Source: a virus (lineage: Duplodnaviria; Heunggongvirae; Uroviricota; Caudoviricetes). From it: a DNA stretch of 7,041 nucleotides. Where the stretch lies: the IMG/VR virus record IMGVR_UViG_2690316109_000023. The stretch is one strand, 5' to 3'. The translations under genes were made by a program, and so were the position numbers. The notes beneath the pieces are model-generated. The model saw nothing but the letters and a program-made list of their open reading frames with translations. It did not search any database and was not told the origin of the DNA. Each line of letters opens with the position of its first letter. Positions within the stretch are counted from its first letter, which is position 1. Shown piece after piece: positions 2,186 through 7,041 of the stretch.

Positions 2186-2520
2186 ACATAGGGCGACTGC
2201 GTGACAGGGTAACGATTCAGACCCTGAAACAGACCAGGGATATAACCGGCGAAATACTCGAAACGTGGGAGGACGGTCACACACTCTGGGCAAGCGTGAA
2301 CATGATCAGCAGCAAGGAGGCCATTTCATCGGGTGCAGAGCTGGCGATTGGTACCGTAAGGATCTGGATACGGTACCGGAAGGACATCAACGCCACCAGC
2401 CGGATAAAGGTCAGTACGGGGCCGCTGGCGGGGCGTGTACTGAATATCATCGGGCAGCCGCTGCCGGATGCCGCCAGGACACGCCTTGAAATTCTTTGTC
2501 GTGAGGGCGCGGAAAAATGA
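2182..2520 (+). CDS. Head-tail adaptor / head closure protein (Phage_H_T_join-like)
   Basis: N-terminus MNIGRLRDRVTIQ matches the G.LR.RVTIQ signature of head-tail adaptors. GAGGGA RBS 11 nt upstream. ATG 2182 overlaps the portal stop. An in-frame ATG at 2140 is a less likely start because it lies inside the portal gene. Confidence 0.8.
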   Translation: MNIGRLRDRVTIQTLKQTRDITGEILETWEDGHTLWASVNMISSKEAISSGAELAIGTVRIWIRYRKDINATSRIKVSTGPLAGRVLNIIGQPLPDAARTRLEILCREGAEK

Positions 2521-2837
2521 CAGAAGAACTTATCACCCATATAACCGGCGAAATACTCGAAACGTGGGTGGACGGTCACACACTCTGGGCAAGCGTGAAC
2601 ATGATCAGCAGCAAGGAGGCCATTTCATCGGGTGCAGAACTGGCGACTGGAACGGTAAGGATATGGATACGCTACAGGAAGGACATCAACGCCACCAGCC
2701 GGATAAAGGTCAATACGGGGCCGCTGGCGGGGCGTGTACTGAATATCATCGGGCAGCCGCTGCCGGATGCCGCCAGGACACGCCTTGAAATTCTTTGTCG
2801 TGAGGGCGCGGAAAAATGACAGAAGAACTTATCACCC
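2240..2837 (+). repeat. Tandem direct duplication of a 299-bp unit (copy 1 2240-2538, copy 2 2539-2837), 290/299 identical
   Basis: Base-by-base alignment of the two copies gives 9 mismatches (copy 1 positions 2270, 2340, 2348, 2352, 2355, 2364, 2373, 2377, 2414). The unit runs from codon ~20 of the adaptor gene to codon 7 of the connector gene. Confidence 0.92.
2517..2819 (+). CDS. Chimeric duplicate ORF: first 7 codons of the gp6-like connector (MTEELIT) fused in frame to adaptor residues ~21-112; possibly a pseudogene or accessory paralog
   Basis: Created by the 299-bp tandem duplication. ATG 2517 overlaps the adaptor stop (ATGA) and its own stop overlaps the connector ATG at 2816. Differs from the parental adaptor by 3 amino acids (E to V, I to T, S to N). 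Confidence 0.5.
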   Translation: MTEELITHITGEILETWVDGHTLWASVNMISSKEAISSGAELATGTVRIWIRYRKDINATSRIKVNTGPLAGRVLNIIGQPLPDAARTRLEILCREGAEK

Positions 2838-3112: not shown

Positions 3113-3552
3113 TGCCGTGGCAACCATTAAGACGATGCACAGAACCAGGCTGTAACAGGCGCGTGAAGTCCGGCAAGTGTGAGGAGCACAGGCGGGCGGC
3201 ATGGCGTGCAGAGGATGCCAGACGAGGACACCGCCGCGCGCGTGGGTACTCCAGACAGTGGGAAAAATACCGCGCCATGTATCTGAGTAAAAACCCGTTA
3301 TGCGTGCGATGCCTTGAGAAGGGGATATATACGCCCGCCGTGGTGGTGGATCACATTATCCCGATTAATGGCGGTGATGATGTTCTCTTCTGGCCCGAAT
3401 GGAACCATCAGCCATTGTGCCAGGCGTGTCATAACCAGAAAACGAAGTGGCTTGATCCGGCAACAAAAAGCAAGCGTGCCGCTGGCGGATTCCGTGAGGA
3501 GGAAGAACGGGCCGCTAACCGCAATAACTGGATGTATGACGCTGATGAATGA
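3112..3552 (+). CDS. HNH endonuclease (terminase-associated)
   Basis: Cysteine pairs CTEPGC and CVRC, plus VVDHIIP and NHQPLCQACHNQKT, form an HNH/zinc-finger motif set. Located immediately upstream of terS/terL as in HNH-cos packaging systems. Confidence 0.88.
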   Translation: MPWQPLRRCTEPGCNRRVKSGKCEEHRRAAWRAEDARRGHRRARGYSRQWEKYRAMYLSKNPLCVRCLEKGIYTPAVVVDHIIPINGGDDVLFWPEWNHQPLCQACHNQKTKWLDPATKSKRAAGGFREEEERAANRNNWMYDADE

Positions 3553-3718
3553 GCGGGAACAAAACCGCCTTATCCGTGGACTTATAAGGCAGCGTGACGC
3601 ATGGAAGACACAGGAAACAGGGCATAAAGATAAAGCGTCAGGACGCGCAGAACGCATCACAGCGAAGCGATTAACCGACCGTGACCGCGAGGTTATGGAA
3701 TGTTTCCGCAATCGCTGA
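3545..3718 (+). CDS. Hypothetical small basic protein (57 aa)
   Basis: ORF MNEREQNRLIRGLIRQRDAWK... starts at an ATG overlapping the HNH stop (ATGAATGA), suggesting translational coupling. An in-frame ATG at 3536 is an alternative start. No recognisable domain. Confidence 0.35.
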   Translation: MNEREQNRLIRGLIRQRDAWKTQETGHKDKASGRAERITAKRLTDRDREVMECFRNR

Positions 3719-3842
3719 TGAGGCTGTATGACGGGGTGGGGGGGCGTTTTCAGGACAAACCCGACCCCGCCGGGCACCGAACGCCTCCTCAAATTTTTAT
3801 GCACGGGAATTTTTTGAAAAATAATCTGGCGAAAAAATAAGC
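3719..3842. other. Intergenic region between the HNH-side genes and terS; candidate cos/packaging site
   Basis: G-rich ACGGGGTGGGGGGG (3731-3744) and C-rich CCCGACCCCGCC (3760-3771) form an imperfect inverted repeat (CGGGGTGGGG vs reverse complement CGGGGTCGGG) around an 18-bp spacer, followed by AT-rich DNA. Its position matches where cos lies in HK97-type HNH-dependent systems. Confidence 0.25.
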
Positions 3843-4199
3843 ATGGCAAGACCACCGAAAGCCCCCGCCTACCTGGATGATATCGCCGTGAAGCAGTGGC
3901 GGGAAAAATCGCGGCAGCTTGCGGAACGGGGAGACCTTACCCCCGCCGACTGGAGTAATCTGGAACTGTATTGCGTCAATTACTCGATATACCGGAAAGC
4001 CGTCGCAGACCTTGCGGCACGCGGGTTCAGCATTGTTAACAGTCAGGGCGGCGAGAGCAGAAACCCCGCATTAAGCGCAAAATCCGACGCTGAAAGAGTG
4101 ATGATAAAAATGGCCTCCTTGCTCGGTTTTGACCCGGTAAGCCGCCGTAAAAATCCACCGGAAACAGAAGAAGAGGACGAGCTTGACCGCCTGGAATAA
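3843..4199 (+). CDS. Terminase small subunit (P27 family-like)
   Basis: 118-aa ORF starting MARPPKAPAYLD with an acidic C-terminal tail (ETEEEDELDRLE), immediately upstream of and overlapping the large terminase. Confidence 0.8.
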   Translation: MARPPKAPAYLDDIAVKQWREKSRQLAERGDLTPADWSNLELYCVNYSIYRKAVADLAARGFSIVNSQGGESRNPALSAKSDAERVMIKMASLLGFDPVSRRKNPPETEEEDELDRLE

Positions 4200-5844
4200 G
4201 TACGCAGAAGACGTAAAAACGGGCAAAATTCCGGCCTGTAAACGGTTAAAACAGGCTGTTAAACGGTACTTTTCGGACCTTAAAAGCCCCCTTTACACGT
4301 TCGATCGTGAGGTTGTGGAGCGGTTTATTGCCTTTTCCAGGGTGTGCCCGCACGTAAAAGGGCCGATGCGTGGCAGACCCATTGAGCTGGAGCCGTGGCA
4401 GCAGTTCGCCTTTGCGTGCATCCTCGGCTTTAAGGTTAAGGCCACCGGACGGCGCAAATACACGAGCGCCTTTATCGAAGTGCCGCGCAAAAATGCGAAA
4501 TCCACGACCGCCGCGATTCTGGCTGACTGGTTTCTGATTATGGAGAACGGTCAGCAGGATATTTACACCGCAGCGGTGAGCCGTGACCAGGCGCGGATCG
4601 TCTTTGATGATGCGCGTCAGATGTGCCTTTTATCCCGACCGTTACGCAGGCGGGTGAATATTCAGGCGCATAAGGTGATACACCCGAAAAGCAACAGCCT
4701 GTTAAAGCCGCTGGCAGCAAAAGCGGCAACCATCGAGGGAACAAACCCCAGCCTTTCCATCGTGGACGAATACCACTTGCACCCCGATAACGGCGTTTAT
4801 TCCGCGCTTGAGCTGGGGATGGGCGCACGTCCCGAAGGGCTGTTATTTGCCATTACCACATCAGGCAGCAACGTCGTTTCAGCCTGTAAGCAGCACTATG
4901 ATTATTGCTGCCAGATCCTGGACGGCGAAGAGGTTAACGATTCAATTTTTGTACTGATTTACGAACTGGACGACGAAAACGAGGTTGATGATCCGGCGAT
5001 GTGGATAAAGGCGAACCCTAATATTGATGTTTCCGTGGATCGTGAAAAACTGGCCTCAACCATCCAGAAAGCGCGGGGTATTCCGTCGCAGTGGGTGGAG
5101 ATGATGACAAAGCGATTTAATATCTGGTGTCAGGGGACTACCCCGTGGATGGGTAACGGCGCATGGGCTGAGTGTGCCGGAACGTTCACGGAGGAAGATT
5201 TACACGGCCAGGAGTGTTACGCGGGGCTGGATTTATCATCCACAAGCGATATTTCCAGCGTGTGCTATGCCTTTCCGGTCGGTAAAACCATTATGCTGGT
5301 TTCCCGTCATTATCTGCCGGAGTTCCAGCTACAGAACCCCGCCAATAAAAACCGCGCTGTCTATCGTCAGTGGGCTAAAGCAGGCTGGATACGCACAACG
5401 CCAGGTGACTGCATTGATTACGACCGGATCAGAGATGACATCATGCAGGACGCGGAGAAATTTAATATCAGGCTGGTGGGCTTTGATACGTGGAACGCCA
5501 CGCATCTCAGGACGCAATTACAGGGGGCTGGTTTTGAGGTGGAGCCGTTCCCGCAAACCTACCTCAGATTCAGTCCGGCGGCGAAATCGTTCGAAGTTTT
5601 TGTTAACCGCAGGGTGATTGTGCATCGTGGCGATCCGGTGTTGTCCTGGTCGATGAGTAACGTCGTGATGCAGAGTGACGCGAACGCCAATATCAAGCCG
5701 AACAAGAAAAAATCACCGAACAAGATAGACCCGAGCGTGGCGGCGCTGATGGCGTTTGGTACATTCCAGGCAGAGCATGAGGATTTTGCTTTTGATATAA
5801 GCGACAGCCACCGCCAGAAACTGGAAGAATTTAGCGGGGTGTAA
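4183..5844 (+). CDS. Terminase large subunit (HK97-type)
   Basis: 553-aa ORF of TerL size placed directly after terS. The first in-frame start is TTG at 4183, overlapping the terS 3' end by 17 nt; the next in-frame Met is ~60 codons downstream, so the TTG start is the likely one. Confidence 0.88.
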   Translation: MTAWNKYAEDVKTGKIPACKRLKQAVKRYFSDLKSPLYTFDREVVERFIAFSRVCPHVKGPMRGRPIELEPWQQFAFACILGFKVKATGRRKYTSAFIEVPRKNAKSTTAAILADWFLIMENGQQDIYTAAVSRDQARIVFDDARQMCLLSRPLRRRVNIQAHKVIHPKSNSLLKPLAAKAATIEGTNPSLSIVDEYHLHPDNGVYSALELGMGARPEGLLFAITTSGSNVVSACKQHYDYCCQILDGEEVNDSIFVLIYELDDENEVDDPAMWIKANPNIDVSVDREKLASTIQKARGIPSQWVEMMTKRFNIWCQGTTPWMGNGAWAECAGTFTEEDLHGQECYAGLDLSSTSDISSVCYAFPVGKTIMLVSRHYLPEFQLQNPANKNRAVYRQWAKAGWIRTTPGDCIDYDRIRDDIMQDAEKFNIRLVGFDTWNATHLRTQLQGAGFEVEPFPQTYLRFSPAAKSFEVFVNRRVIVHRGDPVLSWSMSNVVMQSDANANIKPNKKKSPNKIDPSVAALMAFGTFQAEHEDFAFDISDSHRQKLEEFSGV

Positions 5845-5857
5845 TGAGGTCAGCAGC

Positions 5858-6139
5858 ATGACAGAAGCCGAAATAACGGGATTAATCCGCCGCGTTGCCG
5901 GAATCAGCCAGCAGGCTGACGAACAGGCCACGCAGCCGGACAGCGTGACAGCCGAAAACTATGCGCGTGTTGTTGCTGAGGTGATGCGCCGTGATGGTAT
6001 AGAACTTAATGGCGTGGATATGCGCAACATACGAACCAGAGTTCTTGAGTTGCTGGCCTACCGTCGCCGCGTGGAGATGTATCGGGAGAAGGAGAAAATA
6101 ACGTACCACTGGAAGAAGCCGGAGCGGTTGCGGCGGTAA
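5858..6139 (+). CDS. Hypothetical protein (93 aa), last gene of the module
   Basis: ATG 5858 with GAGG 8 nt upstream, 13 nt after the terL stop. Charged, arginine-rich C-terminus. No recognisable domain. Confidence 0.5.
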   Translation: MTEAEITGLIRRVAGISQQADEQATQPDSVTAENYARVVAEVMRRDGIELNGVDMRNIRTRVLELLAYRRRVEMYREKEKITYHWKKPERLRR

Positions 6140-6289
6140 CTGGTTGATATTCCCGACGGACCAAAAATGGGTGGCTACATCCCTCGCTTCTGAGGACTGT
6201 TAACAAGCTGCCTGAAAGACAGTCACAAACTACGAAATTTTCGCAGTTTAATTAATGATCAGCTTAATCGCTAACCCGCAGATATTTTC

Positions 6290-6700
6290 GGAAACCTCAA
6301 TTTGAGGAAGTCGGCGCGGTAACTCGCTGAACTTTAAGCAAAGCGCAAAATTGCGCTTGCTGAATAATCATTATGATTACGCAGATGATTAAGGAATGAC
6401 CGAAGGCGGAAATTCGCCTGTGGTTAATGGGGGAGTTGCAGATCTGCAACTCGACCATGAAACTACGGAAACTACCCGTAGTTTGGGTAGTAAGAGTAAC
6501 ACCCAGATTTTGGGTCTTACTCGTGATACCCAAATTTGGGGTATCAGTGGCAACCATAACGACTTTCGTTACGGTTGATGCTTTTACCCCATTGGGGGAA
6601 AGGTATTACGATAATCATAACACCTACCGAACAGGTAAAGCCCACCAGCCTGATTAACGTTTAACCGGAAAAAAATTCCGGTAGGTGGGGATCCCCATAT
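6290..6700. other. Hairpin/palindrome-dense non-coding region
   Basis: At least ten dyad elements in ~400 bp: 6295-6307, 6341-6358, 6405-6418, 6433-6452 (perfect 20-mer), 6463-6491, 6494-6522, 6525-6545, 6551-6577, 6587-6597, 6664-6682, 6686-6697 (perfect 12-mer). ORFs in this region are rich in rare codons and lack RBSs. Confidence 0.6.
6433..6452. promoter_or_regulatory. Perfect 20-bp palindrome GAGTTGCAGATCTGCAACTC; candidate dimeric-protein binding site
   Basis: Exact reverse-complement symmetry over 20 bp, verified base by base. Confidence 0.4.
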
Positions 6701-6808
6701 CGACATTAACGCCCCTCATGAATTGGTGCGCTTCCCCCTGGAAAGATGATCCGCCTGTATATTTCTTGTGTCTATTTGTTCCACGTTGTTTCATACAGTG
6801 CACCGAAC

Positions 6809-6832
6809 GGTGTAGTCACTGGTGTAGTCATT
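6809..6832 (+). repeat. Tandem 12-bp direct repeat GGTGTAGTCACT / GGTGTAGTCATT; candidate recombinase arm-type or regulator binding sites
   Basis: 11/12 identical adjacent repeats about 75-95 bp inside the putative element end. Confidence 0.4.
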
Positions 6833-6876
6833 TTGCGATTTTTGGCACTTTTTGTGGTGCAAATTATTTAATTAAA

Positions 6877-7041
6877 TCAATTAGTTAGGTTAAATAAGTT
6901 ATATATAACAGCAATAAATAATGCGAGAATAAACGGCACGATGATCTCGGCGGCAAAACGGATACCGCAGAGAATAATGACCAGCATTCCCAACATAATG
7001 ACGATTTTTAGGCCATTGAGCGTGATGATCGGCTTTGCCAT
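6877..7041 (-). pseudogene. tqsA: 5' fragment of an AI-2E family transporter gene (tqsA/ydgG-like): about 45 native codons, then 9 foreign codons and a stop
   Basis: Minus-strand ATG at 7039-7041 translates to [45 protein letters not shown], then IYNLFNLTN and stop (TGA complement at 6877-6879). The hydrophobic N-terminus matches my recollection of E. coli TqsA. Sequence becomes AT-rich and non-coding exactly where the match ends (~6906). Confidence 0.55.

Follow-up and report, generated by a model that had tools for sequence, protein, structure and literature searches.

The closest described counterpart of the sequence analysed here lies inside a phage regulator gene: the Roi protein of phage HK022 reportedly binds a site within its own gene beside an IHF site, with IHF stabilising the binding. 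When checked in the sequences, the roi genes of HK022 and HK620 were found to carry a palindrome followed after about 10 nt by an IHF consensus, 120–150 nt into a gene that encodes pRha and ANT domains. The Rha proteins of phi80 and P22 belong to the same protein class, and a passage in PMC4936722 (citing Henthorn & Friedman 1995) states that Rha harms phage growth in the absence of IHF and that IHF regulates rha. In P22, the only IHF consensus of the rha gene is at nt 261 and follows the near-palindrome GCGCATTTTTGCGT, the two being collinear with the Rha-type units described below. The sequence layout in HK022, HK620 and P22 fits the reported binding by Roi and the reports on Rha and IHF.

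Clusters of binding sites situated away from the target of a DNA-binding protein, which can sequester that protein and are sometimes aided by IHF, are represented by datA, which acts on DnaA in E. coli, and by the incA iterons of P1, which act on RepA. Within the PICI family itself, non-coding cis-acting DNA is exemplified by cos1 and cos2 of EcCICFT073, and the cosB site of lambda likewise joins protein-binding repeats with an IHF site. A further point of comparison is the CRISPR array, in which short segments, each nearly identical to phage DNA, stand in tandem.

The locus described here, a non-coding array of hairpins at the end of a phage satellite, resembles each of these systems and differs from all of them. 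Unlike the site in HK022 roi, the copies in the satellite are extragenic, are found in an element without roi and form part of a series of cassettes with differing specificity, among which the 20-bp palindrome that drew attention to the locus belongs to a KilA-N allele and is a putative site. Whereas the site in P22 rha is in cis, within the gene that it presumably controls, those in the PICI are in trans and repeated. datA and incA consist of one kind of site for a protein of their own replicon, in contrast with an array that is borne by a satellite, holds different sites matching the regulators of many foreign phages and would act by sequestering them. Unlike the PICI cos sites, to which its sequences are unrelated, the array has no cosN, is common to elements with different terminase systems and is missing from related capsid-forming PICIs (cf-PICIs). 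CRISPR arrays differ in having separating repeats and cas genes, both absent here, where the segments are palindromes derived from one gene class and one gene position; the logic suggested for this array is protein binding, as opposed to guide RNA. No description of such an array was found in the literature, nor of allele-specific intragenic palindromes as a feature of the KilA-N/pRha/ANT class. Operators, and loci that titrate proteins, are familiar; what would be new about them here is a collection borne by a satellite and matching the regulators of many phages.

The palindrome, the hairpin array and the element that carries them

The window, by which we mean the whole analysed stretch of 7,041 nucleotides, represents the right-hand end of an EcCIEDL933-type capsid-forming PICI inserted in E. 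coli tqsA. The complete element (about 15 kb) encodes, in order, int, alpA, an icd-like gene, primase, SSB, perC, major capsid protein, prohead protease, portal, head closure and connector proteins, HNH, TerS (P27 family), TerL and a 93-codon ORF (ORF93), after which about 740 nt without genes lead to the 5' fragment of tqsA. It thus has int, alpA and pri-rep at the left together with its own capsid and packaging genes, while tail and lysis genes are absent. This gene content agrees with that of the capsid-forming PICI EcCIEDL933 of Alqurainy et al. No pRha, KilA-N or ANT protein is encoded in the element, in which AlpA, PerC and a DUF4222 protein are the only recognisable regulators, and any protein binding to the array must therefore be made by a phage. 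The features discussed in this study are collected in Table 1.

Table 1. Features of the right end of the element, with their counterparts in phage genes (positions are those of the window)
Feature	Position	Strand	Content	Relation to other sequences
ORF93, small conserved ORF	5858..6139	+	phrog_1561	Directly upstream of the hairpin array
Rha-type cassette	6137..6180		IHF consensus TATCAACCAGTTA on the - strand (6137-6149), TTGATATTCCCGA motif, palindrome GACCAAAAATGGGT (6159-6172)	Laid out as in P22 rha
Palindrome	6227..6249		AAACTACGAAATTTTCGCAGTTT	Copy of an intragenic site of Roi-like/ANT-domain genes of Salmonella phage ST65 and Klebsiella phage pKp383 (6228-6251: 23/24 identity, nt 154-177 of the gene)
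roi-type cassette	6271..6314		Degenerate IHF site, palindrome CGGAAACCTCAATTTGAGGAAGTCGG	Identity to roi genes (6286-6314: 28/29, E 4e-3, to roi/ant of HK620, HK140, P27 and Stx phages; same hairpin, 6281-6311: 29/31 to the D6 anti-repressor); collinear with the IHF consensus and palindrome of HK620 roi
Palindrome	6337..6357		AGCAAAGCGCAAAATTGCGCT	Copy of an intragenic site from the Rha-family regulator of Stx2a phages (21/21, nt 173-193)
Array hairpins	6365-6379, 6397-6425			No phage source found
20-bp palindrome with imperfect outer extension	6427..6458			Copy of the E-L-Q-I-C-N-S-encoding site in KilA-N genes (6424-6453: 26/30)
Hairpin	6460..6484		AAACTACGG-AAACTAC-CCGTAGTTT	Arms resemble the 6227-6249 unit and the Ralstonia KilA-N palindrome; no exact phage source found
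Palindrome	6498..6518		AACACCCAGATTTTGGGTCTT	Matches the mEp460-type KilA-N site, encoding T-N-T-Q-N-L-G-V
Palindrome	6525..6545		GATACCCAAATTTGGGGTATC	Matches the ST64B-type KilA-N site, encoding D-T-Q-N-L-G-I
Further array hairpins (within 6549..6700)	6549-6580, 6587-6598, 6664-6682, 6686-6697			No phage source found
Direct repeat	6806..6829	+	GGTGTAGTCA x2	Probable integrase arm-type sites of attR
tqsA 5' fragment, chromosomal	6877..7041	-		Right border of the inserted element

The analysis began from an earlier note on a perfect 20-bp palindrome, GAGTTGCAGATCTGCAACTC, whose coordinates (6433-6452) and sequence are exactly as it gave them. This is the longest perfect palindrome of the window, and the claim that it is very improbable by chance was borne out: of 1000 mononucleotide shuffles, 4 produced a half-length of 10, and analytically 0.007 such palindromes per window would be expected. 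Tolerating up to three mismatches uncovered no second copy in the window. The symmetry extends imperfectly outwards to 6427-6458, in the form ATGG-GG-(20-mer)-GA-CCAT. As the note had stated, this is not a LexA box, the pattern CTGT-N8-ACAG being absent on direct reading. A scan for intrinsic terminators did not call the palindrome, the stem of which is followed by GACCATGAAAC with no T run, and the 20-mer has no IHF consensus beside it in the PICI, nor does its counterpart in the KilA-N gene discussed below.

Comparison of 12 distinct PICI variants demonstrates that both half-sites, and not just one of them, are conserved: the inner 8+8 bp are constant with the exception of one position in one lineage. 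Variation in the hairpin is confined to its centre and outer stem, where covariation is weak (a score as high as the observed one arose in 4 of 500 shuffles). In the core of the 20-mer it is the sequence that is conserved and not the symmetry alone.

About 13 hairpins, the palindrome among them, are packed into a non-coding tail of about 560 bp (6137-6700), with roughly 13 of the 32 perfect stems of at least 6 bp in the window falling in 6295-6700. The array region folds into about 10 consecutive stem-loops (z = -11 against shuffles), and the fold is equally strong on both strands with either RNA or DNA parameters. When PICI tails are aligned, a recurring unit becomes apparent, consisting of TAACT-N3-TTGATATTCCCGA-N3 and then a small hairpin with a stem that varies from copy to copy; reverse-complementing the IHF consensus WATCAANNNNTTR gives TAACTnnnTTGATA. 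A reading of these units as nut-like boxA/boxB elements was dropped, the units being reverse complements of intragenic segments of Rha and roi genes, and their likeness to the 5' end of lambda Nu1 (…CTGGCTGACATTTTCGG…) was judged superficial. Among 57 distinct PICI tails the IHF consensus was found 35 times on the - strand and never on the + strand, with 0.4 expected, although this count overstates independence, given the relatedness of the tails. No IHF consensus occurs in the window's 6.1 kb of coding sequence. Within the array it lies about 10 nt from a palindrome in the pRha-type unit at 6137-6180 and, in degenerate form, in that at 6271-6314, and the same spacing is seen in the phage sources of both.

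To the left, the array is always directly preceded by ORF93 in the PICIs of E. coli and Shigella. The family of this small protein is narrow (36 clusters at 50% identity), and a search for related loci with ORF93 in genome contigs returned one locus only. It was considered as a protein that might bind the array and was set aside, having no Pfam domain, a narrow family, a low-confidence three-helix model (pLDDT 64) and no fold match; neither Pfam, nor the structure model, nor the fold search revealed a DNA-binding fold. To the right, the direct repeat GGTGTAGTCA probably represents the integrase arm-type sites of attR, judging by an equivalent repeat (GGTGTAGTTAAT x2) in PICIs inserted beside clpS, and an IHF consensus is located at 6875-6887.

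At least part of the array region is carried by about 1,450 of 5,426 complete E. coli genomes (roughly a quarter), and in about 800 of these it is represented only by a 123-nt module (6428-6550) that includes the palindrome and is 92–94% identical. The same tail, always after the 93-codon ORF, terminates three kinds of PICI: cf-PICIs in tqsA, classical EcCICFT073-like elements beside clpS, equipped with a lambda-type capsid gene and a small terminase-like gene but lacking portal and TerL, and elements with a ClpP-capsid fusion. The tail is mosaic, its modules being shuffled between PICIs. The array is missing from cf-PICIs of Klebsiella and Salmonella whose packaging genes are the same, and it therefore stands outside the cf-PICI packaging machinery; that it is needed for cf-PICI packaging is excluded on the same ground. 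One of the E. coli elements (L004) has an Abi gene in the region where PICIs carry accessory and defence genes, which is also the region of the array.

Counterparts of the hairpins in phage regulator genes

Scanning viral contigs for the 20-mer as a pattern revealed a second context, commoner than the PICI tail, namely the coding sequence of KilA-N-domain proteins in the nin region of lambdoid phages (Stx2a phages, SfII, 2H10). In these genes the 20-mer encodes E-L-Q-I-C-N-S and is situated at nt 154-173 in E. coli prophages and Stx2a phages and at nt 167-186 in a Pasteurella phage, whose KilA-N gene keeps 19–20 of the 20 bases between flanks that have fully diverged.

The whole array was then compared with 50,697 phage genomes. 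Megablast and blastn at default thresholds returned nothing for the tail, and matches appeared only in a permissive BLAST at E <= 10. All told, with the protein-based sample described below included, at least seven hairpins of the window, and three from other PICI tails, proved to be near-exact copies of 20–40-nt segments of phage genes, all of them of the Phage_pRha/KilA-N/ANT regulator class; the sole BLAST match of the window array outside this class is to a Rhizobium phage (E = 2). According to Pfam, the matched proteins combine an N-terminal Phage_pRha or KilA-N domain with a C-terminal ANT/KilAC or ORF11CD3 domain in shuffled arrangements. Within their genes, the matched segments all fall between nt 123 and 288, inside or close to the stretch encoding the N-terminal DNA-binding domain. 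Matches with E < 0.01 are without exception within the class, while those outside it (a T4-like tail fibre gene, Vibrio, Lactobacillus) all have E >= 1. A phage source was identified for about half of the array hairpins.

The finding was replicated with the tails of other PICIs. In one of these (L002), the segment 8680-8716 matches KilA-N-ORF11CD3 genes (E 2e-3) and 8910-8937 matches Klebsiella Rha genes at 28 of 28 positions (E 2e-4); in L004, the first unit, including its IHF-like motif, is homologous to 6137-6180 of the window and matches the Rha gene of a Hafnia phage (E 2e-3).

On the sense strand of pRha-type genes the palindrome is followed after about 10 nt by an IHF consensus that encodes I-N-x-L, a layout present in HK620 roi, the D6 anti-repressor gene, HK022 roi, the Rha gene of the Hafnia phage and P22 rha. 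The pRha-type unit of the PICI is the reverse complement of this cassette, and similarity ends at the cassette edges. A second type of KilA-N cassette is in sense orientation, so that orientation with respect to the source genes is mixed.

Selecting KilA-N loci by protein from viral contigs yielded mostly identical genes and thus a weak unbiased test, which was replaced by a sample of eight KilA-N homologues picked with tblastn on protein similarity alone. Perfect palindromes with arms of 9–11 bp occur at the homologous variable segment in four of the eight (mEp460, ST64B, Ralstonia phage Dimitile and P1 kilA), where about 0.01 would be expected by chance per 350 nt; two more, from Providencia and Morganella phages, keep 8 of the 10 pairs of the ELQIC palindrome, and the remaining two (SfV and LUZ100) have no palindrome at this segment. 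The mEp460 and ST64B palindromes match two more hairpins of the window, 6498-6518 and 6525-6545, a correspondence that was not predicted beforehand. The Leu codon of LQICNS is TTG in all lineages, as against two to four codons at other invariant Leu columns, a comparison which is partly circular because most of the lineages came via the DNA pattern itself. Judged from these sequences, the palindromes are features of the DNA of the regulator genes and not by-products of coding. They suggest that allele-specific intragenic palindromes may be a general hallmark of the KilA-N/pRha/ANT class, extending from phages of E. coli and Salmonella to P1 and phages of Ralstonia and Pasteurella.

Possible functions of the array

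With respect to the 20-mer itself, the earlier note had proposed either an operator for a dimeric regulator or a recognition site for a recombinase or nuclease. The first of these fits best, given the conserved core sequence and the presence of the same 19–20-mer inside the KilA-N genes of several phage lineages, but not in the form of an isolated site, the palindrome being one of about 13 hairpins, nor with a regulator encoded in the element, where none matches. The second found no support: the probable integrase arm-type repeats are at 6806-6829, published PICI cos sites are unrelated and the replication origin is 3' of pri-rep. We infer that the 20-mer is a putative site, copied into the satellite, at which the dimeric KilA-N protein encoded by the ELQICNS allele would bind; this allele is found in Stx2a phages, SfII and their relatives.

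For the array as a whole, we consider it moderately probable that it constitutes, at the level of DNA, a set of putative sites at which the regulators of resident phages, or of phages entering the cell, would bind, copied from KilA-N, Rha, Roi and ANT genes and serving as decoys or for recruitment. In the phage, the palindromes would be sites where the regulator binds its own gene with the assistance of IHF, and the satellite would hold a collection of such sites for many regulator alleles. The regulator of an active phage, together with IHF, would then bind to satellite DNA and, because the satellite replicates to high copy number, regulators would be drawn off from the phage or recruited to the satellite, which may in this way bind or soak up the regulators of many different phages. 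The stronger proposition, in which the satellite DNA is a library of operator-like sites that sequesters KilA-N, Rha and Roi regulators as well as IHF from the active phage, and in which such sites are a general hallmark of the class, is a tentative one and seems to us rather doubtful.

Several other explanations were weighed against these putative regulator-binding sites. It is unlikely, in our estimation, that the array functions as structured RNA, whether as the untranslated 3' end of the island's late operon or as a separate non-coding RNA, and whether as a stabiliser, a terminator or an antisense or decoy molecule directed against roi, rha and kilA mRNAs. The very stable fold agrees with such a role, but both strands fold equally, as with any palindromic DNA, and the near-pairs of the tail hairpins are divided between 24 G.T and 28 A.C with no strand bias. 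The array is co-oriented with the operon and directly downstream of it, yet no U-tract follows the hairpins, and the whole window gave no Rfam match at E <= 1. Some indication of pairing is provided by the outer stem of the 20-mer hairpin, with G.U pairs on the + strand in 7 of the 12 PICI variants and two double changes, and by the small hairpins, whose stems differ between repeat units with pairing kept; the core stem is nevertheless invariant and shows no covariation, and the IHF consensus sites are signals in DNA. Antisense control of antirepressor genes is known from P1 c4 and, as annotated, from the sar RNA of P22, and the pRha-type cassettes are indeed antisense to their source genes, whereas the second type of KilA-N cassette is sense-oriented, and self-complementary hairpins are poor antisense partners. 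A conserved RNA stem, which the earlier note had named as an observation that would speak against an operator, is thus not indicated on either strand in particular.

Non-functional leftovers, that is, scraps of phage regulator genes gained by recombination in a variable accessory region, would be compatible with the mosaic tail, with a region that carries accessory and defence genes such as Abi in L004, with the Klebsiella and Salmonella cf-PICIs that lack the array and with the half of the hairpins that have no identified source. We find this quite unlikely, considering that the cassettes are trimmed to the palindrome with or without its IHF site and have dissimilar flanks, that the palindromes are still perfect, that the 123-nt module is so well preserved across about 800 genomes, and that at least 10 different source genes belong to a single class and contributed the same gene position, with IHF sites all in one orientation. 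The least credible explanation, in our view, is that the array serves the island's own DNA transactions, as an extended attP arm, a cos/cosB packaging site, a secondary origin or priming site, or a group of sites for ORF93 and host IHF. The published cos1 and cos2 of EcCICFT073 hold the exact lambda cosN, unlike the array, and a lambda-type cos site, with cosN GGGCGGCGACCT and cosQ upstream, is absent from these tails; moreover, the module is common to PICIs with three packaging set-ups and missing from related cf-PICIs with the same terminase. An origin was rejected, that of PICIs having been mapped 3' of pri-rep. IHF sites and inverted repeats typically mark att, cos and ori regions, and the array lies 170–740 bp from the attR junction, but this is too distant from the core for a usual arm, and arm-type repeats are found elsewhere (6806-6829). 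As for ORF93, it always adjoins the array, but recognition of ten different palindromes by a single small protein is improbable, and identity to intragenic sequences of phages would be left unexplained by any of these functions.

Certain limits can be placed on the proposed decoy or recruitment sites by means of known helpers. In the proven helper HK106, the examined region (28–41.5 kb) contains no roi, Rha or KilA-N gene and no copy of an array site, and EcCIEDL933 does not interfere with HK106 or HK446 (Alqurainy et al.). The array is therefore not needed for induction by these helpers, on which it exerts no decoy effect that has been seen; a role as helper-induction sensor is disfavoured by the absence of such regulators from the region examined in HK106, and a decoy, if it operates, would act on phages other than these.

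Proteins like Roi, Rha, KilA and Ant come from some of the commonest functionally unassigned phage genes, and the IHF phenotypes of Rha and Roi were described decades ago. If the palindromes are binding sites, the array amounts to a list of candidate pairs of protein and site, and self-binding within the gene would be a shared feature of the class. It would also represent a new interaction between satellites and phages, in which cis-acting DNA in a region of defence genes is aimed at the regulators of many phages, giving the satellite a sequence-based, protein-titrating way to sense or disarm diverse phages. With regard to annotation, ORFs called across the array, such as the "hypothetical protein" of the PICI L003, are probably spurious.

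Palindromes within regulator genes and variable PICI tails

Long perfect palindromes were found inside P1 kilA, a Ralstonia phage regulator gene and P22 ant (see table), which belong to the same class as the phage regulator genes matched by hairpins of the non-coding array downstream of ORF93. This suggests that intragenic palindromes are a class-wide trait of KilA-N, Rha/Roi and ANT-domain regulator genes, extending far outside PICIs.

Among PICI tails, the module that carries the 20-mer palindrome occurs twice in L020 and L077, with approximately 434 nt between the copies, and in both tails the centres of the paired modules differ, being AGATTT in one copy and AGATCT in the other. Some tails also contain a non-coding 83-nt segment (GGGAGGGGCGGGTCAAATCTCTGTACCCTGACG…), located about 244–326 nt after ORF93 in L042 and L087, which shares 91–95% identity with a segment of about nine lambdoid prophage loci; in L083 the coordinates are 403-485.

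In one genome a RefSeq 'hypothetical protein' spans the array (L003 3968-4270, minus strand) and an 86-codon ORF is also present over it in the window; both are probably spurious, because the region is mosaic and rich in palindromes. In another PICI (L004, 6275-7036 and 7198 onward), an abortive-infection family gene lies immediately beyond the array. This island interrupts a lambdoid prophage within its major capsid gene, and it is therefore a helper-embedded PICI.

Coordinates of sequence features in the window and the comparison loci
Feature	Locus	Position (nt)	Remark
Perfect palindrome GAAACTATGCAGAATTGCATAGTTTC	P1 kilA (L225)	193-218	long
Perfect palindrome AACTACCGGAATTCCGGTAGTT	Ralstonia phage regulator gene (L223)	165-186	22 bp
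Perfect palindromes ATGTCGATATCGACAT and TGGGATGCATCCCA	P22 ant (L228)	185-200 and 230-243	
Paired 20-mer modules	PICI tail L020	4532 and 4966	
Paired 20-mer modules	PICI tail L077	7841 and 8277	minus strand
86-codon ORF over array	window	6297-6557	minus strand
HNH–terS gap	window	3552-3843	290 nt
Direct repeat GGTGTAGTCA, two copies	window	6806-6829	
IHF consensus AATCAATTAGTTA	window	6875-6887	near tqsA junction

Right junction and expected cos site

PICIs adjacent to clpS carry two copies of GGTGTAGTTAAT at a relative position equivalent to that of the direct repeat in the window; both pairs are probably integrase arm-type sites, and the IHF consensus is probably an IHF site of attR. The element's own cos site would be expected in the gap between HNH and terS, by analogy with HK97-like phages: in HK106, HNH is at the right genome end.

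Repeats within the structural genes

A 299-bp tandem duplication (window 2240-2837, copies 97% identical) doubles the head-closure gene into two ORFs (2140-2520 and 2517-2819). Just one copy is present in the reference element from O157:H7 (L001 14343-14681); the duplication may be a genuine variant or an assembly artefact. A perfect 18-nt inverted repeat links the terL coding sequence (window 5467-5484, ATCAGGCTGGTGGGCTTT) with the distal non-coding tail (6637-6654), and relatives of 14–19 nt, at 2393-2411 and 2692-2710, lie in the head-closure gene that is duplicated.
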